A stretch of DNA of 64,000 nt from Bacteroidia bacterium (GTDB lineage: Bacteria > Bacteroidota > Bacteroidia > SXHM01), in assembly GCA_022072225.1 (NCBI GenBank), contig JAJVIC010000003.1, forward strand, positions 28,688-92,687, written 5' to 3'. Below, one piece after another: positions 1,746 through 61,428 of this stretch; the stretch's first letter is position 1, and each line of letters opens with the position of its first letter. The translations under genes and the position numbers were made by a program. Under the pieces are notes generated by a model. The model ran no database searches. It was not told the DNA's origin and saw only the letters and a program-made list of their open reading frames with translations.

Positions 1746-1769
1746 AAACCATGAGCGCAATCATAGTTT
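1746..1769 (+). promoter_or_regulatory. Crp/Fnr-type palindromic operator (ATGA-N6-TCAT)
   Basis: AAACC-ATGA-GCGCAA-TCAT-AGTTT; TTTG at 1791-1794; gene start 1812. Confidence 0.75.
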
Positions 1770-1811
1770 ATTGATTAAGCGCGCTGTTCTTTTGTTATAA
1801 GATACGGCATC

Positions 1812-2624
1812 ATGAAAAAACTATTATTTGTCACTATTTTATTTATTGCAGTTTCTGTTTTTGAGGCTAGGAGGAGTATTAGCTATACATCAGGCGCGCC
1901 CGATGGTTTTACTGGTTCGCCTTTCGATGACCAAACCTGCGCTACTTATTGTCATCACGGAATTCCTGAAACACCGCTTCTCGGTGTAATGAGTTCAAAC
2001 ATCCCGCTTTCGGGCTATATTCCGGGAACAACTTATACCATTTCAGCAAATCTTGTAAAACCCGGGCATACAAAATTTGGGTTCCAAATTTCACCAATGG
2101 ATGACCATGGAAATGTTTTGGGTTCGATGATAGAGTTGACAGGCGAAACACAAATTACCGGCATGGGTACCTATATTACGCACACACAATCAGGAACCAC
2201 AGGCATCGGTTCTAAATCGTGGAGTTTTGATTGGGTAGCTCCAGAAGGAGGAACAGGTGATGTTACTTTTTACGGAGCATTTAATGTATCCAACAACAAT
2301 GGTTCAAACAATGGCGATTCAATTTTTACTTCCACATACACAATTCCGGAAGATATTACAGTAGGGATAGAATTGGTTGACAGAAGTAATGAAATAATTG
2401 TTTATCCCAACCCGATGAAAGATTTTTTTACTGTTAGTTTTTCCGAAACGGAAAGCAAAATTTCAGCAAGCATTTTTAGTGTTAACGGAAGTGTTGTTTA
2501 TAACTTACAAACCGCTGAAGGCACAAAAACTTATCAATTACCTGAAACAATTTCTCCCGGAATTTATTACCTGCGTTTTTCTGCAGGTAGTAAAATTTAT
2601 TCTAAAAAAATCATGGTGCTTTAA
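1812..2624 (+). CDS. Reeler-like (choice-of-anchor V type) domain protein with T9SS type A CTD
   Basis: Signal peptide, GSP...TCATYCH, KFGFQ, WSFDWVAP...VTFY motifs, C-terminal VYPNP...GIYYL...KKIMVL. Confidence 0.85.
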   Translation: MKKLLFVTILFIAVSVFEARRSISYTSGAPDGFTGSPFDDQTCATYCHHGIPETPLLGVMSSNIPLSGYIPGTTYTISANLVKPGHTKFGFQISPMDDHGNVLGSMIELTGETQITGMGTYITHTQSGTTGIGSKSWSFDWVAPEGGTGDVTFYGAFNVSNNNGSNNGDSIFTSTYTIPEDITVGIELVDRSNEIIVYPNPMKDFFTVSFSETESKISASIFSVNGSVVYNLQTAEGTKTYQLPETISPGIYYLRFSAGSKIYSKKIMVL

Positions 2625-2655
2625 TCATTTAACTATCCAATACCCAAGAAAAAAT

Positions 2656-4725
2656 ATGAAAAAAATAATTTTACTTTTTTCAGCCTTTCTCTTTCAATAT
2701 GCAGCAATGGCGCAATGCACAACAACCAACGCAACAAGTTGCCAGTGCGAAAATTCTCAGCATACCGATTGCGACTTGCTTCCTGATATAACTATTTCAT
2801 GGCAGGCTCTGGAATCATATTCCAGCGGACCAACCGAATATTCGCAAATCGGAAATGGGGTGAACAACGGCAGATTAAAAGTTTCAGGAGCTACACCGAA
2901 TATTGGTCACGGACCCTTGAATGTTTTTGGACAATGGGATTCAGCAGGAACAACATGGTCGTATTTTCTTTGCGGAGTCGATACTTTTCTTGCACCTGTT
3001 TCGGGTTTTACTTGCCCTAACGGAAATCCAATACCATGGCAGCTTCCAATGCAACGAATCTATCACAAAAACGGAAACATCATGAGTTCGTGGAATCGCT
3101 TTATGGGTCCTGTAACTTATCATGGTGGAGGCTCTCTTTATAATGATGAATGGGGGATTTTTACGCTTCGTATCGAAAACCAAAACATTGCTGACCCGCG
3201 TGAATGGAGTATTGTTGGCTGGGGACATAAACTCGGTTTTTGTTTAATGGATTATAATGAATGCAGTGATTACCCCGGGCATTGTCGAGATGACAATACG
3301 GTTTACAATCAAGGAAACACAATGGTAAATAATGATTTTCCAAACTGGGGACTTGGCGGAGGAAACTATGGCTGCTCGCCTTATGGACAAGGAATTTCAA
3401 GCGGGTATGAAGATATTTACAGCGAAAGCCTTGACGGAATGTGGATAAATATTCCGCCCGGCACCTGCAATGGCGATTACTGGCTTGTATATGAGGTTGA
3501 CCCACACGATTATTTTTTGGAAGAAGATGAAACCAATAATTTCACAGCAATTCCATTTACGCTTACTCAGCAATCGCCATCAGGAAATCCGTTTATTAGC
3601 ATTATACCGGACCGAAGCGATTACATATGCAGCGGAAGCAATGGTCTGGTGAAATTGACAGCTACAGCAGGATTATCTTACCTGTGGTCAACCAACGAAA
3701 CCACGCAAAGTATTTTTGCAGGAGCAGGAACTTATTCGGTATCAGTTACCAATTATTGCGGAACAGGTTCTGCATCTTATACTGTTGTTGGAAGCAGCAC
3801 TCCGGCTTCGCCTTCAGGCACTGATGACACAGTTTGCAGTGGAACTACAGCCCTGCTTTCTGCAACAGGAAATAATATTACCTGGTTTGACGGAGATGGA
3901 GCAACAGTGGGAACGGGAAATAATTTCATCACACCAATTCTTACTTCAACAACGGCATACTATGTGCAAGACCAAACTGTTTCCCCGGGAAATACTGGTT
4001 ATGTCGGGAAGATTGATAACAGTGGCGGAGGAGCTAATAACAACAGCAGTAGTTACCTGATGTTTGATGTTTTTCGACCGCTAACCATTAAATCTGTTAA
4101 AGTTTTTGCAAGCGGAGCAGGAAACCGCACCATCACTATTTGGGACGAAATAGGAATAATTCAGCAAGGAGGGATTTTTAGTATTCCTGACGGGGAATCA
4201 CGCGTAGAACTGAATTTCGCGTTGCAACCCGGAAAAAATTATTCCATCAGAACAAGTGCAAACCCAAATCTTTATCGGAATAATGCAGGGGTTACTTATC
4301 CTTACTCAATGCCGGATACGCTTTCCATTACAGGAACTAATCAGGGAGCGCAGTATTATTATTTCTTTTACGATTGGGAAGTGGAAGTTGGCGGTGCAAC
4401 CTGCACAAGTCCGCAAACAGCAGTAACGGCATTTGTTGAAGAGTGCACCGGCATTGATGATAACTGGGATTTAAGCAAGAATATTTCCGTTTATCCAAAT
4501 CCATCAAACGGAAAATTTACACTGGATATTATTATGCCGGGAACAGGCGATGCAGCAGTGCAGGTGCGTGATTTAACAGGCAGGGAAATTTATGTAAAAC
4601 TTCTTGAAAATATTTCTGGCACTCACAGTTCAATAATTGATTTAGGAAATTTTTCGCGGGGAATATATATGCTTGATGTAAAAATCGGCAGAAAAAATTA
4701 TATCAGGAAACTGGTGGTGCAGTAG
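2656..4725 (+). CDS. T9SS-secreted lysyl oxidase-like domain protein with Ig-like domains
   Basis: Start MKKIILL at 2656; DLLPD, TPNIGHGPL, HKLGFCLMD, QGISSGYEDIY...WINIP, EVDP...EEDETNN are LOX-family motifs; T9SS CTD. Confidence 0.85.
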   Translation: MKKIILLFSAFLFQYAAMAQCTTTNATSCQCENSQHTDCDLLPDITISWQALESYSSGPTEYSQIGNGVNNGRLKVSGATPNIGHGPLNVFGQWDSAGTTWSYFLCGVDTFLAPVSGFTCPNGNPIPWQLPMQRIYHKNGNIMSSWNRFMGPVTYHGGGSLYNDEWGIFTLRIENQNIADPREWSIVGWGHKLGFCLMDYNECSDYPGHCRDDNTVYNQGNTMVNNDFPNWGLGGGNYGCSPYGQGISSGYEDIYSESLDGMWINIPPGTCNGDYWLVYEVDPHDYFLEEDETNNFTAIPFTLTQQSPSGNPFISIIPDRSDYICSGSNGLVKLTATAGLSYLWSTNETTQSIFAGAGTYSVSVTNYCGTGSASYTVVGSSTPASPSGTDDTVCSGTTALLSATGNNITWFDGDGATVGTGNNFITPILTSTTAYYVQDQTVSPGNTGYVGKIDNSGGGANNNSSSYLMFDVFRPLTIKSVKVFASGAGNRTITIWDEIGIIQQGGIFSIPDGESRVELNFALQPGKNYSIRTSANPNLYRNNAGVTYPYSMPDTLSITGTNQGAQYYYFFYDWEVEVGGATCTSPQTAVTAFVEECTGIDDNWDLSKNISVYPNPSNGKFTLDIIMPGTGDAAVQVRDLTGREIYVKLLENISGTHSSIIDLGNFSRGIYMLDVKIGRKNYIRKLVVQ

Positions 4726-4777
4726 CAGTTCAGCATACTGCTCTACAGTCTTTGTTTTTTTATAATATACGGCAGGG

Positions 4778-9082: not shown

Positions 9083-10000
9083 ATGAAAAACAAAATTAAT
9101 CTTCTGCTATTGGTGTTTTCAGTTGCGTTTATGTTTTTTTCGTCCTGTTCAAAACAGCGGATTGAAATGAACGAATACGAATCGCCCAACGATTTTATGT
9201 ATAACAATCGCCCCGAAGAGCAAATCTTTATTCTAAATGGCGACAGCGGTGGTCCGATTATAGGCAATCAGAACACGCATTTATGGATGGACAGTTCTAT
9301 TTTTATGTATTCCAACGGAAATGATGTCAGCTATCCTATCATCATCAAACTGATTGAAGTTTATAAGCCCAAAGACATGGAATTGTATGCCATGCCAACA
9401 GTTGCTCAGGGAAATTTATTAGTTACCGCAGGCGAAATAAGAGTTCGCGCGTTTAAAGATAATGACGAGTTGGTGCTGAAACATGGGAAAGTATATGCGG
9501 CAAAAACTCCGGCAGTAAACCTTGTTCCGCAAATGTCAATTTTCTATGGGAAAGAAATGGGCGATATTATTGACTGGATGGACAATGCCTCGGATGTTAG
9601 CAGTAGTCCGGGAGTTGATGCGCTTGAATTTATTCAACCCGATTCTGCCGAGTATTACAGCCTGCTTGTTCCTGTTATGGGCTGGATTAATTGCGATTAT
9701 TTTTATGATAGTCCAAACCCGTTAACAACCATCACTTTTGAATCAGATGATGACGACCTTACCAATGTGATGAAATTTCTATACTTCCCCGATATAAAAT
9801 CAGTGATGCAGATTTATGAAAACAGCGGAGTTAATGTTCCAATCGGTTCAACGGTAAAAGTGCTTTGCTTCGCGCAAAATTCTTCAGGAAGCATGTTTCA
9901 TTACTATGAGCAGATAACAGTTGCAGCTAATCAAACAGTGAATGTTACTATGTCGGAAATTTCGGAAACAGATTTGTTAACACTGATGGATGGACTGTAA
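9083..10000 (+). CDS. hypothetical lipoprotein
   Basis: Lipobox SSC; LVTAGEIRVRA, MGWINCDYF. Confidence 0.75.
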   Translation: MKNKINLLLLVFSVAFMFFSSCSKQRIEMNEYESPNDFMYNNRPEEQIFILNGDSGGPIIGNQNTHLWMDSSIFMYSNGNDVSYPIIIKLIEVYKPKDMELYAMPTVAQGNLLVTAGEIRVRAFKDNDELVLKHGKVYAAKTPAVNLVPQMSIFYGKEMGDIIDWMDNASDVSSSPGVDALEFIQPDSAEYYSLLVPVMGWINCDYFYDSPNPLTTITFESDDDDLTNVMKFLYFPDIKSVMQIYENSGVNVPIGSTVKVLCFAQNSSGSMFHYYEQITVAANQTVNVTMSEISETDLLTLMDGL

Positions 10001-10015
10001 GAAAGTATAGCGTTG

Positions 10016-11254
10016 ATGATGGAAAAAGTAGAGTTGTTATCACCAGCCGGCTCGTTTGAATCGCTGCAGGCAGCTATACAAGCAGGTGCTGATGCTGTTT
10101 ATTTCGGTATTGAGCAGTTAAACATGCGCGCACGCTCAAGCAATAATTTTACAATTGAAGACTTGCCCCTGATTAAAAAAACATGCGCTGAGGCGAAAGT
10201 TAAAATCTATCTTACTTTAAACACGATTATTTACGATCATGATGTAACACTGATGAAAAGCATTGTAAGCAGTGCGAAGAAAAATAAAATTGATGCAATT
10301 ATCGCCTGTGACCATGCTGTGTTGAGTTATGCAAAACAAATGCGGATACCTGTTCATATTTCAACACAGGCAAATGTTTGCAATGTTGAAAGTGTTCAAT
10401 TTTATTCTGCTTATGCCGATACTATCGTGCTTGCAAGGGAATTAAGTCTGCGTCAGGTTTCCGAAATAGTTAAACAAATAAAAAGAAAGAATATAAAAGG
10501 CCCCTTAGGAAAAAATGTAAAAATTGAAGTGTTTGCACATGGCGCTTTGTGCATGGCAATCTCAGGAAAATGTTACTTGAGTCTGCATTCAAATTTTGCT
10601 TCTGCAAACCGTGGCGCTTGTGTGCAAAACTGCAGACGTGCTTATATTGTTAAAGACAAAGAAGATGAAGTTGAAGTTGAAGTTGATAATGAATATATCA
10701 TGTCTGCGCAGGATTTATGCACTATCAGTTTCCTTGATAAACTCATAAAAACCGGAGTAGGTGTTCTAAAAATTGAAGGACGCGGACGTGCAGCCGATTA
10801 TGTTTACACGACTACAAAGTGCTATCGTGAAGCTATTGATGCATTCTACAATGGCAGTTACACAAAATCAAAAATTGAAAAATGGCTTGATGAATTATCA
10901 ACCGTGTTTAACCGTGGTTTTTGGGGTGGTTATTACTTGGGTAAAAAAATGGGAGAGTGGGCTGACTCGGCAGGCTCAAAAGCAACTAAAACAAAAATTT
11001 ATATCGGAAAAGGAACAGGATATTACAGCGATAAAAAAGTTGGTGAGTTTAAATTGGAATCCAACCAGCTTTCTGTTGGAAATGACTTACTAATTACAGG
11101 ACCAACTACTGGCGTTATTTATACATCAGCTAAAGAACTGCGGGTAAACAACACTCCGGTTGATATTGTTAAAAAAGGCGAATTATTTTCACTTCCGGTT
11201 CCTCAAAAAATCCGTCCTTCCGATAAGTTGTATAAATTGACTCATGGTTCATGA
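10016..11254 (+). CDS. peptidase U32 family Fe-S protein (TrhP-like O2-independent hydroxylase)
   Basis: ELLSPAGS, GADAVY, LARELS, HGALCMAISGKCYLS, NRGACVQNCR, LKIEGR. Confidence 0.9.
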   Translation: MMEKVELLSPAGSFESLQAAIQAGADAVYFGIEQLNMRARSSNNFTIEDLPLIKKTCAEAKVKIYLTLNTIIYDHDVTLMKSIVSSAKKNKIDAIIACDHAVLSYAKQMRIPVHISTQANVCNVESVQFYSAYADTIVLARELSLRQVSEIVKQIKRKNIKGPLGKNVKIEVFAHGALCMAISGKCYLSLHSNFASANRGACVQNCRRAYIVKDKEDEVEVEVDNEYIMSAQDLCTISFLDKLIKTGVGVLKIEGRGRAADYVYTTTKCYREAIDAFYNGSYTKSKIEKWLDELSTVFNRGFWGGYYLGKKMGEWADSAGSKATKTKIYIGKGTGYYSDKKVGEFKLESNQLSVGNDLLITGPTTGVIYTSAKELRVNNTPVDIVKKGELFSLPVPQKIRPSDKLYKLTHGS

Positions 11255-11481
11255 TTCGGATTATTCATTTTCGTGAAAAATGTGTAGGGTGCAATGCATG
11301 CGTTGAAGCAGCACCTTTCAGGTGGCGTATTTCGCGCAAAGACGGGAAAAGCATTTTAATTGGCGGAAAAGAACGAAAAAATGTTTTTTCACTGCTTACC
11401 GGTGAGGATGAATTTCTTGCAAATATTTCTGCTTCGGAAAACTGCCCCGTAAAGATTATTAAACTGGAAAAACTAAATTAA
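11251..11481 (+). CDS. ferredoxin
   Basis: CVGCNAC...CPVKII; overlaps U32 stop. Confidence 0.85.
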   Translation: MIRIIHFREKCVGCNACVEAAPFRWRISRKDGKSILIGGKERKNVFSLLTGEDEFLANISASENCPVKIIKLEKLN

Positions 11482-11898
11482 ATGGACGAAAGAATTGTAA
11501 AATTTATCAGCAGTCAGAAGTGCATTACTATTTGCACAGCAGAAAATAATAAACCGTATTGCGCTAATTGTTTTTACGCTTTTATACCCGAAGAAAATAT
11601 TCTTGTTTTTAAATCAGATAGAAACACAAAACATATTTTGCAGGCGTTGGCAAATAATTATGTTGCCGGAACTATTTTGGCTGATGTGGAAACAACGGGA
11701 ACACTGAGAGGAATTCAGTTCACTGCGGCTTTCAATATTCCTTCTGACAACCTGGTTGAAAAATCAAAAAAAGCATATTATAACAGATTTCCATTTGCGC
11801 TCGCTGTTCCCGGTGATTTATGGACAGTAGAATTAGTTACAGTAAAGCTGACAGACAATATTTTAGGCTTTGGTAAAAAACTGAATTGGCAAAAATGA
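11482..11898 (+). CDS. pyridoxamine 5'-phosphate oxidase-like (YhbP-type) protein
   Basis: PYCANCFYAF, VAGTI, RGIQF, KLTDNILGFGKKLNW. Confidence 0.8.
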   Translation: MDERIVKFISSQKCITICTAENNKPYCANCFYAFIPEENILVFKSDRNTKHILQALANNYVAGTILADVETTGTLRGIQFTAAFNIPSDNLVEKSKKAYYNRFPFALAVPGDLWTVELVTVKLTDNILGFGKKLNWQK

Positions 11899-11939
11899 AA
11901 CTTATAGTTAACTGATTCTTTTTGTGTTTTATTCAAAAT

Positions 11940-11991
11940 ATGATTATACTCATAGCTGAGTAGTATCAGGAAATTATATGATTTTAATCAT
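11940..11991 (+). promoter_or_regulatory. tandem Crp/Fnr-type operators upstream of the regulator gene (probable autoregulation)
   Basis: ATGA-TTATAC-TCAT 11940-11953, CTGA-GTAGTA-TCAG 11956-11969, ATGA-TTTTAA-TCAT 11978-11991; TTTG 12018-12021. Confidence 0.75.
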
Positions 11992-12040
11992 ATTGATACA
12001 TGATAAAAAAGACAAAGTTTGTTCAGTAAAACATTCAATC

Positions 12041-12760
12041 ATGAATCGATTAAAAGAAAATATCGAAGTTACTTCTTGCGATGAATGCCCTACTGCAGGC
12101 AGTTCTATTTTTTGTGTTCTAAATAAAATTGAGTTGTCAGATATTTCAGAAAACAAGTCGTTTATATTTTATAAAAAGGGGCAGATAATTTTCTTTGAAG
12201 GGAATCATCCGCAGGGTTTATATTGCATTTTTTCTGGAAAAGTTAAGATTCACAAACTCGGACATGATGGGAATGAACAAATATTCCGCCTTGCAAAAAA
12301 AGGAAACATTATAGGCTATAGAGCTTTATTGAGTAATGACAATTACCATGCTTCAGCAACAGCAATTGAAGATTCTCTTATTTGCTATTTCCCAAAATCT
12401 GTTTACCAGAGTCAGATTGCAAGCAATCATAAACTTGCGCTTCAAATAATTAAATTGTTATCATCTGATTTAAAGTTGGCCGAAATTAAAGCAATGAATT
12501 TTGTTCAAAAACATGTTCGCGAAAGGGTGGCAGAAACTATATTATTACTGAAAGATTTTTTTGGTGTAGAGGAAGATAATGTAACAATAAATACTGTTCT
12601 AACGCGCGAGTCAATTGGAAATATCTCAGGAACAACAACCGAAACAGCTATAAGAATTTTGTCGGATTTTAATAAATCTAAAGTTGTTGAATTGGTTGGT
12701 AAAAAAATAAAGATTATAAATCTTAAAGAACTTATTAAAATAGCTAATCTTACCGAATAG
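12041..12760 (+). CDS. Crp/Fnr family transcriptional regulator, FNR-like with N-terminal Cys cluster
   Basis: Likely start MNRLKE at 12041; CDEC-x8-C, cNMP domain, HTH LTRESIGNISGTTTETAIRILS. Confidence 0.9.
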   Translation: MNRLKENIEVTSCDECPTAGSSIFCVLNKIELSDISENKSFIFYKKGQIIFFEGNHPQGLYCIFSGKVKIHKLGHDGNEQIFRLAKKGNIIGYRALLSNDNYHASATAIEDSLICYFPKSVYQSQIASNHKLALQIIKLLSSDLKLAEIKAMNFVQKHVRERVAETILLLKDFFGVEEDNVTINTVLTRESIGNISGTTTETAIRILSDFNKSKVVELVGKKIKIINLKELIKIANLTE

Positions 12761-12782
12761 TTTACTTCTTCAATACGCACCT

Positions 12783-13313
12783 TTAGAATAGCTTCATCAA
12801 TTCATTGATTTGTTTCTCTAGATTTGGTTTTGTATTCAGCAGCATTTCGTTGTCTGCATCAATAAATCTAAAATAAATATTCTCAAGCTCCTTATCAATA
12901 AAAAGCATTTCTGCTATTTGAAAAACCTCATCATTTTCCACAGCAATATGATTCAGTAATGCTTCAGCATATACGTGCATTTGTTGTTGTGTTCTCAAAT
13001 AATCTTTTTTCAACAGATAATATTCAACACTATTTATCATTTCGCGGAACTCGTCATGGTTATTATACATCTCTTTTATTATTCCGTCTTTTAGTAACTC
13101 ATTTTTGTTAACCATTTCAGGGAATAAAATCAGGTTCTCTTTTTTATGGTGAATTTTATCTGCGTATTCTCGAAAAAATTGAAGCAAATTAGTTGTAACT
13201 TCTGAATATAACTTATCATTTTTTCCGATAAGAATATCAGCCTTTAGAGCAACATCAACAGCTGATGAAATAATATCATGCTCGATTATCAATAGTTTAA
13301 TCGGGTTTTTCAT
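12783..13313 (-). CDS. hemerythrin HHE domain protein
   Basis: EHDII, HHKKENLILFP, HDEFR, HIAVENDEVF. Confidence 0.85.
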   Translation of the reverse strand: MKNPIKLLIIEHDIISSAVDVALKADILIGKNDKLYSEVTTNLLQFFREYADKIHHKKENLILFPEMVNKNELLKDGIIKEMYNNHDEFREMINSVEYYLLKKDYLRTQQQMHVYAEALLNHIAVENDEVFQIAEMLFIDKELENIYFRFIDADNEMLLNTKPNLEKQINELMKLF

Positions 13314-14476
13314 AATAATCTACTTAATAATAATTTTTTAATGTATTGAAAGGCAGACACCTTTTCTTTATTCAAATCAACACCAAATAAATGAAAACTT
13401 AAATATATTATATGATTAATAATCCACCTTATCCAAATCGCAAATTCAATATATATTTCCTTAAACCTTTTTAGTAGATCATATTTTATGAATCGTCTAA
13501 TGTGAGGAGGAATAAAAAAGTAATAATGAACAGGAAGTAATATAATCCAATCAAAATCTCTTATAGCCAATACAATTATGCATAGTACGGGAAAATATAT
13601 TTGATGAAACTGGTCTATGTAGGAATTATCCCAAGTACTGCCAGATTTTTGTAAAGAAAAAATAAACTTATTTATTCCCAATAACAGATATATTAAAAAC
13701 GAAATAATTATTAAAAGAAAGGTGCTCGTATCAACTGATTTTATTATAAAAAACGACACATAACAAATAATCTCGAAGAGAAGACAAAGTTGAATTATAT
13801 CTTTTGTGTGTTCATGCCCTGTTTTATGAGGAAATGTTGTAATTCCCGACTTTTTATCAAATGAAACATCTTTTACCTGATGAAGTAAGATATTTCTGTA
13901 TCCTATAAAAAAAGAAATAAATACAAATAATATAAAAAGTGGTTGAACAGGTTTTTCTGCGAATAAAAAAAATGTATGGCTTGCAAGCAGGAATGGAATT
14001 ATATATGCATAGGCTGTATCAATGCCAGCAGAGACAAGCCAAACATTTTTTAATCTTGGAAATGGAAGTGAGTATGCTAAGAAAAGTGTTATTTCTAAAC
14101 CAATTAATATCCAGGACCATTTATCCGAAGGAAGAATTAACCATGGGATAAATGTTAATACCAATATGATTAGTAAAAATAATACCTGCTTAGGATTTGA
14201 AATATCTGCTAAATAATTTTTCTTTCCAGCTAATGCGTCAGAAGTTCTATCAAAATACTCATTAATAAAATAACCGAGTGCAGCAAACCCTGTCGAGGTT
14301 AACAAAAAGAGGAATAAATTTAGTAAGGAAGAAATAGAAAGTTCAAATTCAAATAGTAAAAGAAATAAATAGCAAATACCTACTATGTAAGGCAAAAAAC
14401 TAAAGCGCCAATTTGAAATTCTGACAGACACAAAAAAAGAAGAAAGTGAAAATTCTTTACTTAATAAATACAACAC
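13310..14476 (-). CDS. UbiA family prenyltransferase
   Basis: NEYFDRTSD and HQVKDVSFDKKSG Asp-rich motifs, AYSLPFPRLK, many TMs. Confidence 0.8.
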   Translation of the reverse strand: MLYLLSKEFSLSSFFVSVRISNWRFSFLPYIVGICYLFLLLFEFELSISSLLNLFLFLLTSTGFAALGYFINEYFDRTSDALAGKKNYLADISNPKQVLFLLIILVLTFIPWLILPSDKWSWILIGLEITLFLAYSLPFPRLKNVWLVSAGIDTAYAYIIPFLLASHTFFLFAEKPVQPLFILFVFISFFIGYRNILLHQVKDVSFDKKSGITTFPHKTGHEHTKDIIQLCLLFEIICYVSFFIIKSVDTSTFLLIIISFLIYLLLGINKFIFSLQKSGSTWDNSYIDQFHQIYFPVLCIIVLAIRDFDWIILLPVHYYFFIPPHIRRFIKYDLLKRFKEIYIEFAIWIRWIINHIIYLSFHLFGVDLNKEKVSAFQYIKKLLLSRLL

Positions 14477-14504
14477 AGCTGCTTAAAAAATATTTTTATC
14501 ATGA

Positions 14505-15380
14505 TTAAAAAGAATTCATTCTGTTTAAATAAAAATGATTACGGTTTTTCTTAAAATCAAAATCAGGTTTTCTGCACCTTATTTCAAGATAATCAACAGG
14601 AAAGACAGAATCTTCTTTTGATGGGTCAAGACCAATTTTTGTTTTGTCTTGAAAAGCTGTTGATATAGCAAAAGAATCCAACTGTGAGTAATCAATATCA
14701 GGTATTTTGATAAATTCAATAATAAAATATAACTTTCGAAGTTTAGAAATTACCTGGTGTAAATCACCAACGTTAAATTTATAGGCATTGTTAATATTTA
14801 CAATTCCTTCCCTTATTCTTTTCTTCTCAAATGCATCATCAACCTCTCTCTCAAAGAGATCTTTAATATATAGTATTCCCCCGGGCTTTAGCACGTCCCA
14901 GGCAGCTTTTAATAAATCATTTTTCTTATCTGAATGTCCAAATGATTCAAGAAAAAGAATTCGGTCGAAGTAGTTTTTGCCAAAAATATCAGCAACATTA
15001 TGGTAGTCCGCGTGCTGAACAATTACTTTTTTTTCAAGTCCCTCGTTTATAACTTTCTGTTTTGCAATGTCTGCCTGAACGCTGGAAATTGTAATGCACT
15101 GAAATACTGAATTTATTTTTTTTGCAAAATAGACCGAAGGCCCGCCAACTCCACACCCTGCATCCAGGATAACTTGATTGTCTTTCAGCACAGCACTCTT
15201 TATGGTATAATTTAAATAATCACTAATGTCAAAAGTTCTCAATGATTGTATTACGTCACCATGCGTAGCCATAAACATTTCTGTAGTTCTATCATAAAAA
15301 TCTCCTACAGCTTCTGAATTATTAGTATTAAAATTTTTAAACAACTTTCTAATAGCTGAAATATTTCCGCTCTTTTTCAT
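14505..15380 (-). CDS. class I SAM-dependent methyltransferase (sterol/tocopherol/CMAS-like)
   Basis: ILDAGCGVGG, ITISSVQ, FLESFGH, LKPGG. Confidence 0.85.
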   Translation of the reverse strand: MKKSGNISAIRKLFKNFNTNNSEAVGDFYDRTTEMFMATHGDVIQSLRTFDISDYLNYTIKSAVLKDNQVILDAGCGVGGPSVYFAKKINSVFQCITISSVQADIAKQKVINEGLEKKVIVQHADYHNVADIFGKNYFDRILFLESFGHSDKKNDLLKAAWDVLKPGGILYIKDLFEREVDDAFEKKRIREGIVNINNAYKFNVGDLHQVISKLRKLYFIIEFIKIPDIDYSQLDSFAISTAFQDKTKIGLDPSKEDSVFPVDYLEIRCRKPDFDFKKNRNHFYLNRMNSF

Positions 15381-15973: not shown

Positions 15974-15987
15974 ATGATACGAGTCAT
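15974..15987 (-). promoter_or_regulatory. Crp/Fnr-type operator for the minus-strand operon
   Basis: ATGA-TACGAG-TCAT; perfect TAnnTTTG (TACATTTG) on the minus strand at 15950-15943. Confidence 0.75.
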
Positions 15988-16069: not shown

Positions 16070-16083
16070 ATGACCTAAATCAT
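16070..16083 (+). promoter_or_regulatory. Crp/Fnr-type operator upstream of moeA
   Basis: ATGA-CCTAAA-TCAT; TTTG at 16110-16113. Confidence 0.7.
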
Positions 16084-17333: not shown

Positions 17334-17347
17334 ATGAGCAAAATCAT
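17334..17347 (+). promoter_or_regulatory. Crp/Fnr-type operator upstream of modE
   Basis: ATGA-GCAAAA-TCAT; TTTG at 17374-17377. Confidence 0.7.
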
Positions 17348-25694: not shown

Positions 25695-25708
25695 GTGATT
25701 ATTGTCAT
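25695..25708. promoter_or_regulatory. Crp/Fnr-type operator
   Basis: GTGA-TTATTG-TCAT; extra half-site TCATAGTTT at 25740 whose TCAT ends 30 bp before the end of TTTG 25770-25773. Confidence 0.6.
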
Positions 25709-29018: not shown

Positions 29019-29032
29019 GTGATTGTTATCAT
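29019..29032 (+). promoter_or_regulatory. Crp/Fnr-type operator
   Basis: GTGA-TTGTTA-TCAT in the gap upstream of the GNAT gene; no TTTG at the usual spacing. Confidence 0.5.
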
Positions 29033-32684: not shown

Positions 32685-32698
32685 ATGAGCAAAATCAT
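32685..32698 (+). promoter_or_regulatory. Crp/Fnr-type operator
   Basis: ATGA-GCAAAA-TCAT-AGTTT; TTTG at 32725-32728 on + strand. Confidence 0.75.
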
Positions 32699-45926: not shown

Positions 45927-45928
45927 TT

Positions 45929-46868: not shown

Positions 46869-46892
46869 AAACCATGATTGCAATCATGGTTT
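46869..46892 (-). promoter_or_regulatory. perfect 24-bp palindromic Crp/Fnr-type operator upstream of the GRE activase
   Basis: AAACCATGATTGCAATCATGGTTT. Confidence 0.85.
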
Positions 46893-46906: not shown

Positions 46907-48400
46907 TTATTTATCTATACTCAGCATAAACTTAGCCACCTCCAACCTTTTTTCTTCTGAAAGGTAATCTTGCGGAGGCATTTCGGGAAAATCTGTGCGT
47001 TTATGAACCGGTTTTGCAATATAGTCTGCAATTCCTTGCGGATTGTCTTTATACAACGCCTGAATAGTCATAACAGGCGGACCAATCATGCGCATGTTGT
47101 AGGAGTGGCAGCCGCTGCAAATTCCGTAATAAATCAGTTTTCCGCGATCTTCTGTTTTTGTGTCGCGGGCTGGTGCCGGTTCGGGCAGCATGTAGGAGAT
47201 GATGTTTCCCGTTCCGGCTGACTGGCACTGGCTGTAATTATTCAATCCAACTGTAATGTATTTATTCTTGTCGCGAATGCAACTGCCCGATCCACCACCT
47301 ATTGCAACAATATCAATTCCGGGTGTAGTAACTAAGTTGGCAACTTTATATGCTTTAAGTTCATCAATTGGATTACTGCCGTTGTTGCTCATAATATTGT
47401 CAAGAATAACAATGCGGTCGGGGTTGGGTTCTGATTCGGGGTCTTTGGTAATGTGAGCAATGAAATTCAAATCAGTCATCACAATACCTGCATTCTGGTT
47501 GCCAGTAATAATATTGTTTTCAATGGTAACTTCATCTGCCGCCATTATAATAATTCCTGTGCCTTTTGGAAGACTGGCCACTATGGAGCCTGGCTCGCCA
47601 AAGTTTTCAATGTTGTTGTTGATAACAAAGTTGTTGCGGATAATTACATCATAACAGGTTTTTATAGGCAGTCCGGGTGTGATGAAAGCAAGAATGCCGC
47701 CTGTATTATCGTGCACATAATTTCCTTCTACCAAAGCATGTCGTGAATTTTCAATTTCTATTCCTGCCACGCTGCTATGCACTTCGTTGTAAAGCACATC
47801 AATATTGTCGCACATGCCTACATATATTGCGGCATCTTCAATTCCTGAAAGTATGTTGTGTGAGATAAGACCGTTGGTGCCGAACTCGGGGAATATTCCG
47901 TAAACCCCGGTGTCTATTATATAGTTGTTGCGGATAATGAAATTGTTTCCGGCTTGTCCCATTATTCCGTTGCCTTTGTAGTTCATGATTTTGAAATTTT
48001 CAATCACCATGTTATTACCCGAATAGAGGATGGCATCATTGCGCGTTTTTTCACCTTCGAGTATGGGCCATTGTCCTTCGCGGATAATTCCCTGTAAATA
48101 AATATTGTCTTTATCAATGTAAACAGTTTCTTTGTATGTGCCCGGATAAACGCGAATAAGATAGCCTGATTGGGCTTTGTTTATGGCATCTTGAATTAGT
48201 TGTCCGGGTTTTACTTCTATAACATTGCGTTGTTCAGTTTGTTGTAAAGCAGCAATATCTTTGCTTCCTGCTCCTTTAAAATAATCAACGGTTGGCGGTG
48301 GGGGCACATTGCTTTTTTGTTTCATGGATACAAGGTATCCTGCACCGAAAATAATTCCTGCTGCGAGCAGTATTCCCAGAATTTTTAAAACAGATTTCAT
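46907..48400 (-). CDS. parallel beta-helix protein fused to C-terminal cytochrome c
   Basis: YGIFP, DAAIYVG, AGIEIENS, NTGGILAF repeats; C-terminal CSGCH...MPPQ. Confidence 0.85.
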   Translation of the reverse strand: MKSVLKILGILLAAGIIFGAGYLVSMKQKSNVPPPPTVDYFKGAGSKDIAALQQTEQRNVIEVKPGQLIQDAINKAQSGYLIRVYPGTYKETVYIDKDNIYLQGIIREGQWPILEGEKTRNDAILYSGNNMVIENFKIMNYKGNGIMGQAGNNFIIRNNYIIDTGVYGIFPEFGTNGLISHNILSGIEDAAIYVGMCDNIDVLYNEVHSSVAGIEIENSRHALVEGNYVHDNTGGILAFITPGLPIKTCYDVIIRNNFVINNNIENFGEPGSIVASLPKGTGIIIMAADEVTIENNIITGNQNAGIVMTDLNFIAHITKDPESEPNPDRIVILDNIMSNNGSNPIDELKAYKVANLVTTPGIDIVAIGGGSGSCIRDKNKYITVGLNNYSQCQSAGTGNIISYMLPEPAPARDTKTEDRGKLIYYGICSGCHSYNMRMIGPPVMTIQALYKDNPQGIADYIAKPVHKRTDFPEMPPQDYLSEEKRLEVAKFMLSIDK

Positions 48401-48403
48401 AGT

Positions 48404-49579
48404 TTATTGTATTTGGTTTTGCTTATCAGACGGTAAAAAACCGGAAGGTAATTTTTCGGGCGTTGAAGGTAAAAAACTTTCGTCAGTAAGTGTTTGAAGA
48501 AAATCGGTTACGCATTCTATTTCTGTTGCCGTCAGGCTAGGTTCCCAAATATGCCAGTGCAGACTTAGTTTTTCGTTGAGCGGCACAGCATGTCCGCGTC
48601 CTTTGTTATAAAATTCAACTACTTCTTTCAGCGATTTAAATTTTCCGGAGTGCATGTAGGGCGCTGTTTTGGCAATGTTGCGAAGGGTAGGAACTTTAAA
48701 GCCTCCGCGCATACTGGGGTCGTTAAAAGTTTTTTCAGCGCCAGGGTCAAAAGGCAAGTCGTCTTGTTCGGGTGTACCCAGTACGGCTATTTGCTGGTTG
48801 GTAAATAGAGGTGGTGTATGGCATTCTGCACAGCGTGCAACAAATGAGCGAAAAACATTCATGCCTTCAATTTCATTGGGTTTTAGCGCTTGATGAAAAC
48901 CATGAGCATACAAATCATAACGACTGTTGAGTGAAATGAGTGAAGCTTCAAAAGCGGCAATAGCAGTATAAATTTCATGCAATTGGATTTCGTTTTTCTT
49001 TTTATCGGGAAATGCCTGCATGAATAATTCGCGGTATTGATCGATGGAGTTAAGTGTTGCGAGCAAATTCGATTCAGTATTATTCATTTCATTTTCGGCA
49101 TAAAGCGGTCCTTGCATTTGTTCTTCCAAAGTGGTTGCACGACCATCCCAGAAAAACGATTTGAGGAAAGCTACATTCCATAACGTTGGTGCTGCACGGT
49201 TAAGCGGCAGACCGTTAAATCCTGTGCTGCGGGCTAATCCATCGCTGAATCCTTTTTGAGGAATGTGGCAACTTGCACAAGAAAGTTTTTTATTGCCAGA
49301 TAAAACGGGGTCGAAAAAAAGATAGCGACCAAGGTCAATTTGTTGTGGCGAAAAGCCGTCACGCATTTTGGGCAAACCAGTTTGTAAACCACCTACACCG
49401 GCATTGTTGAGTGATTTGTATTGGTGATAAAGTGAGCGACACAGGCATTTATTATCGGCAGTAAGCTCAAAGCCGGGTGGACAATGTTGTGCAAGTTTTA
49501 TGTTGCTTGTGTTTTCTTTTTTGCAAGTTGTTAGAAAAACAACAGCAAGAAAAAGAGTAATGCTACTGTATTTGTTCAA
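48404..49579 (-). CDS. diheme cytochrome c peroxidase, MauG/MbnH-like
   Basis: LGRYLFFDP, CASCH, FFWDGR, CAECH, FKVPTLRN, APYMHSG. Confidence 0.9.
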   Translation of the reverse strand: MNKYSSITLFLAVVFLTTCKKENTSNIKLAQHCPPGFELTADNKCLCRSLYHQYKSLNNAGVGGLQTGLPKMRDGFSPQQIDLGRYLFFDPVLSGNKKLSCASCHIPQKGFSDGLARSTGFNGLPLNRAAPTLWNVAFLKSFFWDGRATTLEEQMQGPLYAENEMNNTESNLLATLNSIDQYRELFMQAFPDKKKNEIQLHEIYTAIAAFEASLISLNSRYDLYAHGFHQALKPNEIEGMNVFRSFVARCAECHTPPLFTNQQIAVLGTPEQDDLPFDPGAEKTFNDPSMRGGFKVPTLRNIAKTAPYMHSGKFKSLKEVVEFYNKGRGHAVPLNEKLSLHWHIWEPSLTATEIECVTDFLQTLTDESFLPSTPEKLPSGFLPSDKQNQIQ

Positions 49580-50243
49580 CGGATTGTATGTATGATATTA
49601 TATCATTCAACATTTGTGCTTCATCAATAGTGCCGACTATTTGTTTCATCTGCGCACCAAATTTATCATTAACATGGGAGCCGCGTATTCCTTTTTTAAA
49701 ATTAAGTATCTGGTGTTTGAGGTACCAGTCGTTTATACCTGTTAGTTTTGGTGAATTCAATTTTTTATTACCTGCTGCTTTGGTTCCATGGCATGAGCCG
49801 CAAGCCATATTATAATAATCTTCTCCCTTTACAATATCTCCTTTTATGGTTTGTTCATTTGCTGCAGCTGAACGGGTTTTAATATACGCCACTACATCGG
49901 CTATTGTTTGCTCATCAGTGAGTGTTTGTGCCATGGGGGCCATTTGTGCGCCATAAATATCATCGGCATGGGTTCCTCTTATACCTGCCTTAAAGTTTGC
50001 TAACTGCCGTTGAAGATACCATTCATCTTGTGCAGCAAGATTGGGTGCATTTAAGGTTTGTATTCCTTGTGCATTGTTTCCGTGGCAGGCAATGCAAGTG
50101 GCAAAGAGGGTTTCGCCTTTTATTACATCGCCTTTTATTAGTGTTGTAGTATTTTCAGTTGCTAGTGAATCTTCAGATTTTTTTTGTTCAGTGCAACCAC
50201 TGTAAATTGAAATAATGATGAACAGGTATAGTAAATTTTTCAC
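49563..50243 (-). CDS. diheme c4-type cytochrome lipoprotein
   Basis: Lipobox SGC, CIACH and CGSCH, P.LA.Q...YL..QL. Confidence 0.88.
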   Translation of the reverse strand: MKNLLYLFIIISIYSGCTEQKKSEDSLATENTTTLIKGDVIKGETLFATCIACHGNNAQGIQTLNAPNLAAQDEWYLQRQLANFKAGIRGTHADDIYGAQMAPMAQTLTDEQTIADVVAYIKTRSAAANEQTIKGDIVKGEDYYNMACGSCHGTKAAGNKKLNSPKLTGINDWYLKHQILNFKKGIRGSHVNDKFGAQMKQIVGTIDEAQMLNDIISYIQSVEQIQ

Positions 50244-50520: not shown

Positions 50521-50534
50521 ATGATTGTTATCAT
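50521..50534. promoter_or_regulatory. Crp/Fnr-type operator in the divergent cytochrome/nor promoter region
   Basis: ACT-ATGA-TTGTTA-TCAT-ACT; minus-strand TTTG ends at 50491, plus-strand TTTA ends at 50564. Confidence 0.75.
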
Positions 50535-50630
50535 ACTTAAGAAAATATTTAGAGCAGTTATTTACGCATTGTTTATTTTTTTGAAGGAAGAGGTAGCTTA
50601 GTAAGTTTTCTGTTGGGTAAAAAAAGTATA

Positions 50631-51065
50631 ATGAGTTTGTTGCACAAGCGCTTATTTTTCTGGAGTTTGTTTATTGCTTTCGGCATTTACACGGTTGTTG
50701 TGTTTACCGATGATGCTGGCGATGATATGGGTGCGGAATACTTTACCCAAGAAGCGGCAAACGGCAAATTGCTTTATCAGAAATATAATTGCACCGCCTG
50801 CCATCAGTTGTATGGGTTGGGCGGATATATGGGTCCTGATCTTACCAATGTTATGTCTGCAAATGGAAGAGGTGAGTTTATTGTTCGTGCTTTTTTAAAA
50901 TCGGGAACTCAAAAAATGCCCAACTTTAATTTAACTGACGATGAAATAAATGACTTAGTGGCTTATCTTTCTTATGTTGATAAATCGGGCATTTCGCCTG
51001 TTCGTGATTTCAGTATTAATGCAGACGGAACAGTGGAAGTATTCAGTAACGGAGCAAAAGAATGA
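50631..51065 (+). CDS. norC: NorC-like membrane-anchored cytochrome c
   Basis: N-terminal TM, CTACHQ..G.GG..GPDLT, MPNFNL. Confidence 0.8.
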   Translation: MSLLHKRLFFWSLFIAFGIYTVVVFTDDAGDDMGAEYFTQEAANGKLLYQKYNCTACHQLYGLGGYMGPDLTNVMSANGRGEFIVRAFLKSGTQKMPNFNLTDDEINDLVAYLSYVDKSGISPVRDFSINADGTVEVFSNGAKE

Positions 51066-52375
51066 ACAAACCAACAAGCATACTTTTTATTATTACCGGT
51101 TTACTGGCATTGTTGCTGGGTATTTTTTTCGGGGCTATCAGCGCCTTACAATTTATTTTGCCCGGTTTTTTTGAGGTGCTGCCGTTTTTTAAAAGTCGGC
51201 CGCTGCATGTGTCGCTGGTGGTAGCCTGGATATTTTCGGCTGCGGTGGGTGGTATTTATTATTATCTTCCAAATCACTGCAATCTTCCTTTGTATTCAAA
51301 ACAATTACCCCGAATACATTTTGCTCTTTTTATCCTAACCGGGCTGCTCATTATTATCAGTTATATGCTGGGTAAATTCGGGGGCAGGGAATATTGGGAG
51401 TTTCCGCCTGTGCTGGCTATACCTATTATTATGGGATGGGTATTGTTTGGCTTCAATTATTTTAAAACGGTAATGAAAAAAAAGGAACCCTGGCCAGTTT
51501 ATCTGTGGATGTGGGCAACGGGTGTTTTCTTTTTCCTGTTTACTTTTTCTGAATCGTATTTATGGTTGTTGCCTTATTTTCGCAACAATGTTATTAGGGA
51601 ATTAACCGTTCAGTGGAAATCATACGGTGCGTTAGTAGGTTCGTGGAACATGTTGGTTTACGGCACCGCCATTTTTGTAATGGAAAAACTGAGCAATGAT
51701 AAAACCGTTGCACTTTCGCGCCTTTCATTCTTAATGTATTTTCTGGGGCTTACTAATCTGATGTTTGGTTGGGCACATCATATTTACATTGTTCCTTCGG
51801 CACCGTGGATACGCCATTTTGCTTATTTCATCAGCATGACTGAGTTGCTGATACTGGGCAAACTAATCTGGAATTTCAGTCACACTATAAAACAGGCAAA
51901 AGATACTTACGGCAATATAGCATCGCGTTTTATGGCTGCTGCCGATGTATGGATTTTCATCAACCTTATTTTGGCTTTGCTTATTTCAATTCCGGCAATA
52001 AATATTTATACCCACGGCACACATATTACCGTTGCCCATGCCATGGGAAGCACCATTGGTATTAACACCATGATTTTACTCAGTTCATGTTTCTACATTA
52101 TTGAGCAAACAAACAAAGCTACCGGCAGTGGGCCAAACAATAAACTAATAGGTTGGGGTTTCTGGATAGTAAACAGTTGTTTGCTCGTATTCTTTATTAG
52201 CCTTGTAGCAGCAGGTATAATAAAAGGATATTACACGGTAGAAAATGAACTCAGTTTTCAGGAAATAATGCAAAAAACAGCTCCCGCTCTTACAGTATTT
52301 GTTGCAACCGGACTAGGAATTTTTGCCGGTATGCTGCTTATAGTTTTATCTGCCCTGCGCAAGTTATTCAGATAA
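51062..52375 (+). CDS. norB: NorB-like heme-copper oxidase superfamily subunit I with non-canonical active site
   Basis: RPLH, GREYWEFP, WAHH, YTHGTH; canonical VHLWVEG replaced by KSYGALVG and HGH by HAM. Confidence 0.75.
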   Translation: MNKPTSILFIITGLLALLLGIFFGAISALQFILPGFFEVLPFFKSRPLHVSLVVAWIFSAAVGGIYYYLPNHCNLPLYSKQLPRIHFALFILTGLLIIISYMLGKFGGREYWEFPPVLAIPIIMGWVLFGFNYFKTVMKKKEPWPVYLWMWATGVFFFLFTFSESYLWLLPYFRNNVIRELTVQWKSYGALVGSWNMLVYGTAIFVMEKLSNDKTVALSRLSFLMYFLGLTNLMFGWAHHIYIVPSAPWIRHFAYFISMTELLILGKLIWNFSHTIKQAKDTYGNIASRFMAAADVWIFINLILALLISIPAINIYTHGTHITVAHAMGSTIGINTMILLSSCFYIIEQTNKATGSGPNNKLIGWGFWIVNSCLLVFFISLVAAGIIKGYYTVENELSFQEIMQKTAPALTVFVATGLGIFAGMLLIVLSALRKLFR

Positions 52376-60832: not shown

Positions 60833-61169
60833 TAGCTCAACCTCAGCAATGGCTCACTTATTCCAAGGAATGGCTGGCTTATTCCAAGGAATGGCTCACT
60901 TATTCCAAGGAATGGCTAGCTCAACCTCAGCAATGGCTCACTTATTCCAAGGAATGGCTAGCTCAACCTCAGCAATGGCTCACTTATTCCAAGGAATGGC
61001 TAGCTCAACCTCAGCAATGGCTCACTTATTCCAAGGAATGGCTCACTCACTCCAAGGAATGGCTGGCTCACTCCCTGCCTTCCGGCTCCCACTCCCTGCC
61101 GGCAATACGTTAGCCACTGCCGGCAATAAGCTGTCCATTGCCTTCCGTCAGTTACTTATTGCCTTCCCT
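60833..61169 (+). repeat. mosaic 21-bp-phased tandem array (11 AATGGCT units, then CTTCC and CGGCAAT units)
   Basis: AATGGCT every 21 bp from 60848 to 61058; register continues at 61079, 61100, 61121, 61142. Confidence 0.93.
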
Positions 61170-61176
61170 ACACCAA

Positions 61177-61344
61177 AAAGGGGAGCCCCTATCCAGAAAG
61201 GGGGACCCCCTGCGCGAAAAAGGGGAACTCTTGCATGAAAAAGGGGAGCCCCTATCCATAAAGGGGGAGCCCTTGCGCGAAATAGGGGAGTCTCTACACC
61301 AAAAAGGGGAGCCCCTATGTGAGAGAGGGCCCCCCCCTGCACCC
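61177..61344 (+). repeat. 21-bp tandem array, 8 units with palindromic AGGGG-AG-CCCCT core
   Basis: aaaggggagcccctatccaga-type units; translates as KGEPLxx. Confidence 0.88.
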
Positions 61345-61361
61345 TAAACTTCTTTATAAAC

Positions 61362-61375
61362 ATGAGCATCATCAT
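61362..61375 (+). promoter_or_regulatory. Crp/Fnr-type operator upstream of mbnP
   Basis: AAC-ATGA-GCATCA-TCAT-TGTT; TTTG at 61403-61406. Confidence 0.7.
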
Positions 61376-61428
61376 TGTTCCACCCTCTGTATGTTAGCTT
61401 ACTTTGTATCACTAAAATTCAGTTTTCC

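Follow-up and report, generated by a model that had tools for sequence, protein, structure and literature searches.

FNR, known from Escherichia coli and Aliivibrio fischeri (PDB 5cvr, 5e44), recognises the consensus box TTGAT-N4-ATCAA and activates from a class II position centred at -41.5. Its regulon includes nitrate respiration, molybdenum cofactor (Moco) synthesis, micro-oxic oxidase and glycyl-radical enzymes. The same consensus is also quoted in 10.1101/172254, which describes a different CRP-like motif in Chlorobaculum. Related regulators are FixK2/FnrN of rhizobia, ANR-DNR of Pseudomonas and FnrL-Dnr of Dinoroseobacter (PMC5398030, in part), which control fixNOQP/ccoNOQP, fixGHIS, hemN and denitrification genes. 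Bacteroides and Porphyromonas encode HcpR2, an FNR-like regulator of N-oxide stress found by comparative genomics, whose motif is GTAAC-N4-GTTAC and whose regulon, in the relevant part of the source, is essentially hcp alone (Rodionov 2005, PMC1274295). Here we analyse a 64-kb window of contig C7 in the 4.87-Mb genome (G000) of a Bacteroidia bacterium; the window is the whole stretch of DNA under study, and positions given without a contig refer to it. It carries repeated copies of a 14-bp palindrome, RTGA-N6-TCAT. This palindrome is quite probably the operator of an FNR-type class II activator of the Crp/Fnr family. The protein encoded at 12041 (P0001) would be its likeliest binder on the surrounding genomic island, presumably as an oxygen sensor. 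The boxes make up a real anaerobic regulon of classical type with a variant box.

The palindrome (RTGANNNNNNTCAT) gives 22 strand matches in the window, which correspond to 12 sites with no further match. Dinucleotide shuffles of the window give 3.99 +/- 2.77 matches with a maximum of 13, and none of 100 shuffles reaches 22. A pattern scan recovers exactly the 12 sites listed in a preliminary description of this DNA, ten as perfect ATGA-N6-TCAT palindromes and two, at 25695 and 29019, as GTGA variants. That description had placed the sites between genes, and all 12 do fall in intergenic spacers. Gene calls in the present work are maximal open reading frames (ORFs), which are rough, over-extended at their 5′ ends and cover 93.7% of the window; positions more than 90 nt inside an ORF are termed deep coding and make up 84.8% of the genome. 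No match lies in deep coding sequence of the window. Nine of the 12 boxes are fully outside maximal ORFs (binomial P about 3e-9) and the remaining three (11978, 25695 and 61362) lie only in 5′ over-extensions. The AAAC/GTTT flanks pointed out earlier are also apparent: flank position -2 is A in 18 of the 24 half-sites and position -1 is C or A. The TGA-N6-TCA core palindrome has the Crp/Fnr geometry that had been proposed for it. No half-site has A at position 5, and A-rich flanks (AAAC/GTTT in this genome) surround a consensus of ATGAT-N4-ATCAT, in full AAAy-ATGAT-N4-ATCAT-rTTT.

Genome-wide, ATGA-N6-TCAT occurs 134 times, ten of them in the window, compared with 31–130 occurrences for spacings N0–N12. 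The more specific ATGAB-N4-VTCAT has 34 promoter-proximal or intergenic (non-deep) and 19 deep-coding sites, a density ratio of 10, compared with 0.8–1.9 for controls consisting of the N5 and N7 spacings and four unrelated palindromes. Half of the non-deep sites (17/34) fall in C7:28.7-145 kb. ATGAT-N4-ATCAT has ten non-deep and two deep sites, and six of the non-deep ones are in this island. The motif is thus enriched over shuffled DNA in the window and over coding DNA in the genome, as the preliminary description had anticipated. The classical FNR box TTGAT-N4-ATCAA is not enriched in the genome (four non-deep, eight deep, none in the island), nor is the CRP box TGTGA-N6-TCACA, which is also absent from the island. 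The Fur consensus contains ATGA-N3-TCAT; a Fur box was rejected, this spacing not being enriched (104 in the genome, three in the window). A repeat or terminator was rejected by inspection, with no dedicated test run, on the grounds that arms of 4 bp are too short and that the central bases differ between sites.

The boxes stand at a fixed distance from a TTTG. This ends 30 bp past the box at 1751(+), 11978(+), 16070(+), 17334(+), 32685(+) and 50521(-), and 31 bp past it at 15974(-) and 61362(+), all eight distances being exactly those first reported; at 25695(-) it ends at +32. On the island, 13 of the 18 boxes are followed on one side by a TTTG that ends at +30..32. Among 276 oriented non-deep NTGA-N6-TCAT sites in the genome, 26 have TTTG at +30 and 0–7 have it at any other offset from 20 to 44. 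In 20 promoters aligned on TTTG, T is found in 11/20 and A in 14/20 at the TA positions of TAnnTTTG; because TTTG was the selection criterion for this alignment, only the TA counts are independent. By these counts, the box promoters carry the Bacteroidota sigma-A -7 element TAnnTTTG, which the start map of Flavobacterium psychrophilum, in the part consulted, places at -12 to -5 (PMC9723704). The box centre is 37 bp upstream of the G in this element. With the G at -5, as in that map, the box would span -48 to -35 with its centre at -41.5. This would be the position of a class II activator, in agreement with the placement near -41 proposed at the outset, with start sites carried over from the F. 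psychrophilum coordinates (PMC9723704, in part). The box takes the place of the -33 element and, read by eye, none of the 20 aligned promoters has a TTTG there. RNA-labelled Logan contigs cover shares of 0.05–0.11 of the stretch, X1 and X2 being only guessed to be RNA; over the regulator gene they start at 12042 (X1), 12040 (X2) and 12037 (X4), 16–21 nt past the -7 G at 12021, and these contig starts show neither transcription start nor expression.

P0001 (12041..12760, plus strand, 239 aa) is an FNR-like Crp/Fnr regulator. It contains PF00027 (cNMP_binding; 75.5 bits, residues 43-128) followed by PF13545 (HTH_Crp_2; 45.5 bits, residues 161-233), both above cut-off. This is the order of the CRP/FNR superfamily, a beta-roll and then a C-terminal Crp-type helix-turn-helix (HTH), and P0001 has fold and domain order in common with FNR. 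Cysteines are present at positions 13, 16, 25, 62 and 115 and the recognition helix is T-E-T-A-I-R. The preliminary description of a Cys-rich protein whose helix keeps E and R is therefore accurate, and the best NCBIfam match is Fnr. The closest solved relatives are 2gau (E 3e-34) and then Aliivibrio FNR. FNR proper has an O2-labile [4Fe-4S] cluster that governs dimerisation and DNA binding, with four cluster cysteines, three of them N-terminal and one in the beta-roll. Cys13, Cys16 and Cys115 of P0001 align with the cluster cysteines of Aliivibrio FNR, the first two forming an N-terminal CxxC and the last lying in the beta-roll; the third N-terminal Cys is offset by three residues from that of FNR, so that a four-Cys set is present but has one member at another position. 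Over 72 full-length homologs, Cys13 and Cys16 are each kept in 69, Cys62 in 64, Cys115 in 70 and Cys25 in 29. The 2gau protein has the beta-roll, the arrangement of the HTH and the helix I-R in common with P0001, but its helix is S-N-A-I-R, without the Glu, and its alignment starts at residue 25, without the N-terminal CxxC. Prevotella-like loci with the 2gau helix (L057, L059, L064) show no box enrichment.

The recognition helices of P0001 (GtTtETaiRiL) and FNR (GlTvETisRlL) share the Glu and the Arg, while P0001 has Ile for the Ser. FNR proper has E-x-x-S-R; P0001 has E-T-A-I-R, and E-x-x-I-R is found in 63 of 76 P0001 homologs. The box differs in parallel: the outer half-site base is A here (ATGAT) and T in FNR (TTGAT), and TTGAT-N4-ATCAA is not the box used in this genome. 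There are further differences: the third N-terminal Cys is not conserved here whereas Cys62 is, the score lies below the NCBIfam Fnr cut-off, and the partner promoter is of the Bacteroidota -7/-33 type. By its sequence, the P0001 system appears to work like FNR/FixK class II activation but not to be FNR proper, given the sub-cut-off score, the helix Ile, the box A and one differing Cys ligand position. The common features are the TGA-N6-TCA core, the helix E and R, the predicted -41.5 position and the kind of regulon.

A related covariation is seen among the homologs. In the CRP family, an Arg before the Glu is known to read G. Eight homologs have an R-E-x-x-x-R helix. In four of these, GTGA-N6-TCAC precedes the regulator's own gene, which is so in none of the 68 others; this is the pattern expected if R-E homologs bind boxes at their own promoters. 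Three of the R-E loci (L037, L043, L052) combine GTGA-N6-TCAC at about -165 with ATGA/GTGA-N6-TCAT at -60 to -93; the presence of both box types upstream of these regulators suggests a cascade between two specificity classes.

The preliminary description had called the regulon window-wide, which proves too narrow. About 18 boxes fill an accessory island of about 115 kb (C7:28.7-145 kb), and the regulon extends to nar, nos and cbb3 genes outside the window. Within the window the targets are MoeA, MobA, MoeB, MoaE and MoaC/B, a glycyl-radical enzyme with its activase, dihaem cytochrome c/CCP/NosD-like genes, a cytochrome c and haem-copper oxidase pair, MbnP/MbnH, the regulator itself and secreted or unknown proteins. 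Further boxes on the same contig lie at C7:100354, 104166, 107701, 110491, 113790, 117586, 117654, 117813 and 142794. Island targets outside the window are a DUF2249-ScdA_N-hemerythrin (RIC-like) gene, a hemerythrin gene with MoaA, narK-narK followed by a second Crp/Fnr gene, a divergent cytochrome c-narG-narH operon (box TTGAGGAACATCAT, TTTG at +30), 2-hydroxyacyl-CoA-dehydratase-like genes and a MobA-XdhC-SDR-molybdenum-hydroxylase cluster; the box at C7:113790 precedes a 576-aa gene.

Outside the island, contig C1 has five promoters with two boxes whose centres are 22 bp apart, a distal box with a good ATCAT half-site and a proximal CTGAy-N5-TCAT with TTTG at +30. They precede cytochrome c-NosZ-like, fasciclin protein, Usp, P-type ATPase ccoI and ccoS-ccoNO-ccoP-ccoG genes, are located at C1:27146/28390, 1064445, 1067899 and 1070651, and have their boxes at -63.5 and -41.5. 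The tandem layout also occurs in loci L009-L048 and is kept in many Bacteroidota loci. Several Chitinophagales-like loci (L016, L020, L035 and L040) encode a conserved protein of about 170 aa that starts MCAHSSSG/MCTHAS... and matches no Pfam family; its gene has a tandem-box promoter and is directly downstream of the P0001 homolog, about 80 bp past the stop. Together, the boxes precede a target set of the FNR/FixK type: narGH, narK, nosZ-like, ccoI/S/NO/P/G, MoeA/MoaA/MobA, the glycyl-radical enzyme, RIC, Usp and a radical-SAM enzyme. Their gene content is that of FNR/FixK/ANR regulons. The earlier proposal that one regulon unites Moco, glycyl-radical enzyme, cytochrome, Nor-like and MbnPH genes holds as far as these are anaerobic or micro-oxic genes, but the box before the Nor-like pair is at about -60.5 and not at -41.5.

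The box and its spacing are conserved in relatives, although counts across relatives, which are not independent, serve as consistency checks and not as P-values. A set of 76 loci around homologs of the 12041 protein (1.22 Mb in total, from Chitinophagales-, Sphingobacteriales-, Flavobacteriales- and Ignavibacteria-labelled records) contains ATGA-N6-TCAT 155 times, against 29 for N5 and 36 for N7. TTTG is found at +29..31 in 54 of 128 ATGAB-N4-VTCAT boxes, against 10 of 139 control sites, and a second peak at +51..53 (49 cases) results from tandem boxes 22 bp apart. Genes behind oriented boxes in these loci include ccoI (12 loci), FixS/ccoS (seven loci, plus tandem cases), Crp/Fnr paralogs (8), MoeA and the radical-SAM enzyme. 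The GTDB order consists of eight species in one genus (G000-G007), and the island with its regulators and about 18 boxes is present in three of them (G000, G004, G007); it is thus accessory and possibly transferable. A composite pattern (box, 26 N, TTTG) gives 17, 19 and 19 matches in these three genomes (controls 0, 1, 1) and 1–6 in the other five. Of the congeners, only G004 and G007 carry an ortholog of the 12041 protein, 85% identical. Boxes and TTTG are kept between G000 and G007 in spacers that are otherwise about 40–52% identical. In a phylum sample, 14 genomes of the same class contain 74 matches versus 13 for the control, and 46 genomes of other classes 45 versus 20, a weak excess.

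The sequence itself shows the motif with its enrichment, spacing and conservation, the gene content behind it, and the regulator's family and conserved residues; binding, activation and an O2 or NO signal are what we infer. A regulator dimer would bind centred 37 bp upstream of the G in the sigma-A -7 element TAnnTTTG, where it would overlap the place of the -33 element and activate as a class II factor. Promoters of the core genome (cco, nos, usp) have, in addition, a better box 22 bp upstream of the first, at a predicted -63.5. At island promoters the binder would be the island-encoded, autoregulated P0001, which may detect O2, and perhaps NO, by means of an Fe-S cluster ligated by the conserved Cys13, Cys16, Cys62 and Cys115. 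Paralogs (the REC-fused one by ccoI and the Cys-less one at C7:108000) would probably use the box too and bring in further signals, an arrangement known from ANR/DNR or FnrL/Dnr cascades. The genes switched on would be those for nitrate, nitric-oxide, nitrous-oxide and low-oxygen respiration. On the sequence evidence, P0001 is most likely the best candidate binder of the island boxes.

Several observations weigh against this reading. The Fnr match of P0001 (NF008365) reaches only 102.5 bits, with a cut-off of 228. The residue equivalent to FNR Cys29 is unaligned, and only 29 of 72 homologs have a Cys there, so that the Fe-S ligand set is one that we infer. Two of the 12 window sites (25695, 29019) are weak, and 5 of 18 island boxes have no TTTG at +30..32. 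Phyletic co-occurrence is confounded, regulator and targets travelling on one island. The five congeners without P0001 still have 1–6 boxes, which requires that some other paralog binds the core sites at least. Finally, the genome encodes seven HTH_Crp_2 proteins, of which three besides P0001 could read the box by virtue of an E-x-x-[I/V]-R-compatible helix or an island location, and the assignment of the box to the 12041 protein is conditional for that reason.

The other members are diverse. A Cys-less paralog on the island (C7:108000-108701) has the helix Y-E-T-T-V-R and is DNR/NnrR-like. P0002, also on the island (C7:113934-114647), has P-E-Q-I-S-R and four N-terminal Cys, and its gene comes last in the narK operon. 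The core genome encodes a REC-cNMP-HTH fusion (C1:1066816-1067871; L082:8816-9871) that has T-E-S-V-I-R and lies directly upstream of ccoI and ccoS-ccoNO. A second such fusion (C1:608346-609455), a CRP-like paralog with the helix R-E-T-V-S-R and one further paralog are also core-encoded. A counterpart of the ccoI-linked fusion, 38–40% identical, is present in six of seven congeners and was not found in G005 (78% complete). At least 8000 homologs of this fusion type exist under no name other than 'response regulator', and it may combine a FixJ/FixK-like function in one protein. As in FixK2/ANR-type cascades, paralogs with different sensors would here read near-identical boxes, and regulator genes carry boxes of their own. 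Those cascades are proteobacterial, with TTGA-N6-TCAA boxes and sigma-70 -10/-35 promoters, whereas the present set includes one paralog in which a fused receiver replaces the sensor and one truncated, sensor-only paralog.

The palindrome could be a real Crp/Fnr operator whose main binder is another paralog, either the REC-fused or the Cys-less protein, with phospho-relay or NO as the signal in place of direct O2 sensing by an Fe-S cluster. We regard this as unlikely. Both proteins have the same helix type as P0001; four of the five congeners that keep 1–6 box-plus-TTTG sites without P0001 carry the REC-fused paralog, whose gene is directly upstream of the box-bearing ccoI and ccoS-ccoNO promoters and whose abundance marks it as a major Bacteroidota regulator type. 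P0001, however, has its own conserved box, genomes with it have 17–19 sites compared with 1–6 in those without, and in other orders it is the P0001-type (CxxC) protein that neighbours ccoI/ccoS. The two readings are not mutually exclusive, and it is likely that boxes are shared. As in the known cascades, we would favour P0001 for the island and a common use of boxes overall.

The bound protein might instead repress, covering the -33 region and keeping the anaerobic genes off until a signal removes it. A box that reaches from about -48 to -35, where the -33 element would otherwise be, would fit a repressor too, which tells against activation, and some Crp/Fnr members do repress. Yet repressors tolerate variable overlap, while spacing fixed to a single base pair at -41.5, with a second box exactly 22 bp upstream, is typical of activators that contact RNA polymerase; the lack of a TTTG at -33 in 20 promoters is as expected for activator-dependent ones, and FNR, FixK and ANR activate these same gene classes. 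Repression thus appears improbable. An artefact of composition or of start codons at divergent gene starts (ATG...CAT), or a dispersed repeat, is effectively refuted: ATG and CAT are indeed part of ATGA and TCAT, start codons account for many ATGAA... matches across the genome and other classes also show a weak excess, but with position 5 limited to bases other than A the sites persist and cluster in the island, the N5 and N7 spacings show no enrichment, the central six bases vary and are not copies of one repeat, and the fixed TTTG distance, the conservation in diverged spacers and the coherence of the targets would be left unexplained.

Eight of the window sites are strong, with box, TTTG at +30/31 and a gene. 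The regulator's own box (11978..11991, plus strand, ATGATTTTAATCAT) lies upstream of its gene, with the -7 TTTG ending at 12021 (+30). It is conserved in G007, and the four closest orthologous loci (L005-L008) have such a box at -65 to -68; by these features it is a predicted autoregulatory site of the 12041 gene. A distal box (11940..11953, ATGATTATACTCAT) is 38 bp upstream of it, at about -79.5; it has no TTTG at +30 on either side and is not conserved in G007, and its membership of the regulon is uncertain. The box at 1751..1764 (plus, ATGAGCGCAATCAT, TTTG ending at 1794, +30) is identical in G007 within a spacer that is otherwise about 40% identical. It is predicted to drive the gene for a protein with a type IX secretion system (T9SS) tail (1812-2624) and probably also the lysyl-oxidase-like, Fer4_5/TPR, cytochrome c and DUF5777 genes downstream.

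The minus-strand box at 15974..15987 (ATGACTCGTATCAT, with TACATTTG ending 31 bp downstream at 15943), conserved in G007, would drive P0003 (15404..15913, minus strand) and probably the methyltransferase, UbiA and hemerythrin genes (12783-15380). P0003 (169 aa, Cys17/20/26/65/118) consists of the Crp/Fnr sensor domain only, without HTH; its G007 ortholog has about 245 aa and an HTH, and only residues 1-164 of that ortholog match P0003. By this comparison P0003 appears as a truncated paralog that keeps a strong box-dependent promoter. The box at 16070..16083 (plus, ATGACCTAAATCAT, TTTG ending at 16113, +30) precedes moeA (ATG at about 16132) as its likely target; it is conserved in G007, and MoeA is also behind a box in L005, L006 and L075. 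That at 17334..17347 (plus, ATGAGCAAAATCAT, TTTG ending at 17377, +30), identical in G007, is predicted to drive 17397 (a small HTH_1 protein), TauE and MobA, and probably MoeB, MoaE and MoaC/B. The same sequence ATGAGCAAAATCAT recurs at 32685..32698 (plus, TTTG ending at 32728, +30), where it would drive genes for unknown proteins (ATG at about 32752), an O-methyltransferase and an OmpA-family protein.

The two weak sites are at 25695..25708 (minus, GTGATTATTGTCAT), which faces a DUF4412 gene (24997-25665) with minus-strand TAGATTTG ending at +32, a position weight matrix (PWM) score of 15.0 and both half-site and spacing off consensus, and at 29019..29032 (GTGATTGTTATCAT), which has a GTGA half-site, directly follows the stop of a GMC oxidoreductase gene and has no TTTG at +29..32 on either strand. 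The highest PWM score (28.8) and best palindrome are those of the box at 46874..46887 (minus, AAACC-ATGATTGCAATCAT-GGTTT), where an imperfect -7 TAAAATTG ends at +30 and a perfect TAnnTTTG TAATTTTG at +43. It faces a glycyl-radical activase (45929-46846) and a glycyl-radical enzyme (43545-45926). The enzyme of this minus-strand locus (43545-46846) belongs to the PFL2-3 subfamily (TIGR01774, 689.6 bits) and does not reach the cut-offs of the models for HypD, CutC and sulfopropanediol dehydratase.

The box at 50521..50534 (minus, TTTG ending at +30, position 50491) is predicted to drive the dihaem cytochrome c, CCP/MauG and NosD-like genes (46907-50243). Its class II orientation faces this cytochrome c/peroxidase operon; on the plus strand, towards the cytochrome c and Nor-like pair (50613-52375), the TTTG ends at +49, which puts the box at about -60.5. 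This pair consists of a cytochrome c and a 437-aa protein of the haem-copper oxidase family (51062, COX1 family) with weak ccoN similarity (61.7 bits); Nor-like is a label only, NOR identity not being established. The last box, at 61362..61375 (plus, ATGAGCATCATCAT, with TTACTTTG ending at 61406, +31), precedes mbnP (ATG at about 61429) and mbnH as its presumed targets, and G007 has a similar box with similar flanks.

Around the regulator (9083-15380), a U32 peptidase-family gene (10013), an unknown 305-aa neighbour and the YhbP-like 11482 gene are found together with the UbiA prenyltransferase, methyltransferase and hemerythrin genes; the 11482 protein matches the NCBIfam YhbP family below cut-off. 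These genes could form a set for O2-independent quinone biosynthesis or modification. Family searches gave no match for the proteins at 8527, 9083, 32704, 33262, 34031, 38939, 39489, 40818, 52636, 53629, 54015 and 60849. The GC content within the window ranges from 30% to 47%.

HcpR2, the FNR-like regulator already described in the phylum, is a different branch with a different box. Full-text searches turned up no account of the present box or of an FNR regulon in Bacteroidota, although supplements might hold motif tables. Term searches in PMC3590769, PMC8510549 and PMC1274295 did not find it either; the first two mention Crp/Fnr homologs of Bacteroidetes or Ignavibacteria. In F. psychrophilum, cbb3 is induced under O2 limitation, and the terms 'Fnr' and 'Crp' are absent from the main text of that report (PMC9723704, in part). 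Judged from sequence, what is new here is most likely a changed DNA code and an unusual promoter type on a familiar kind of oxygen switch.

A broader proposition, which we put forward tentatively and with rather less confidence, is that of a Bacteroidota-wide FNR lineage. It may have its own code (outer A with helix Ile), its own four-Cys set (13, 16, 62, 115), a rigid coupling to sigma-A at -41.5 (plus -63.5) and a DNA-binding module recombined with other sensors, namely a fused receiver domain and a form without Cys. If true, a modular network of O2, NO and phospho-relay inputs would govern the cbb3 oxidase, nitrate reductase and N2O reductase, partly from a transferable island of about 115 kb. 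The control of micro-oxic and denitrifying respiration in Bacteroidota, including that of nosZ, the enzyme of the N2O sink, is poorly charted. The Ile-for-Ser and A-for-T pairing offers a clean case for the CRP/FNR recognition code, and a box with single-base spacing to the -7 element provides a testable rule for activator-dependent Bacteroidota sigma-A promoters. A defined box also permits the prediction of anaerobic regulons in thousands of metagenome-assembled genomes and offers a design for O2-responsive promoters in Bacteroidota.

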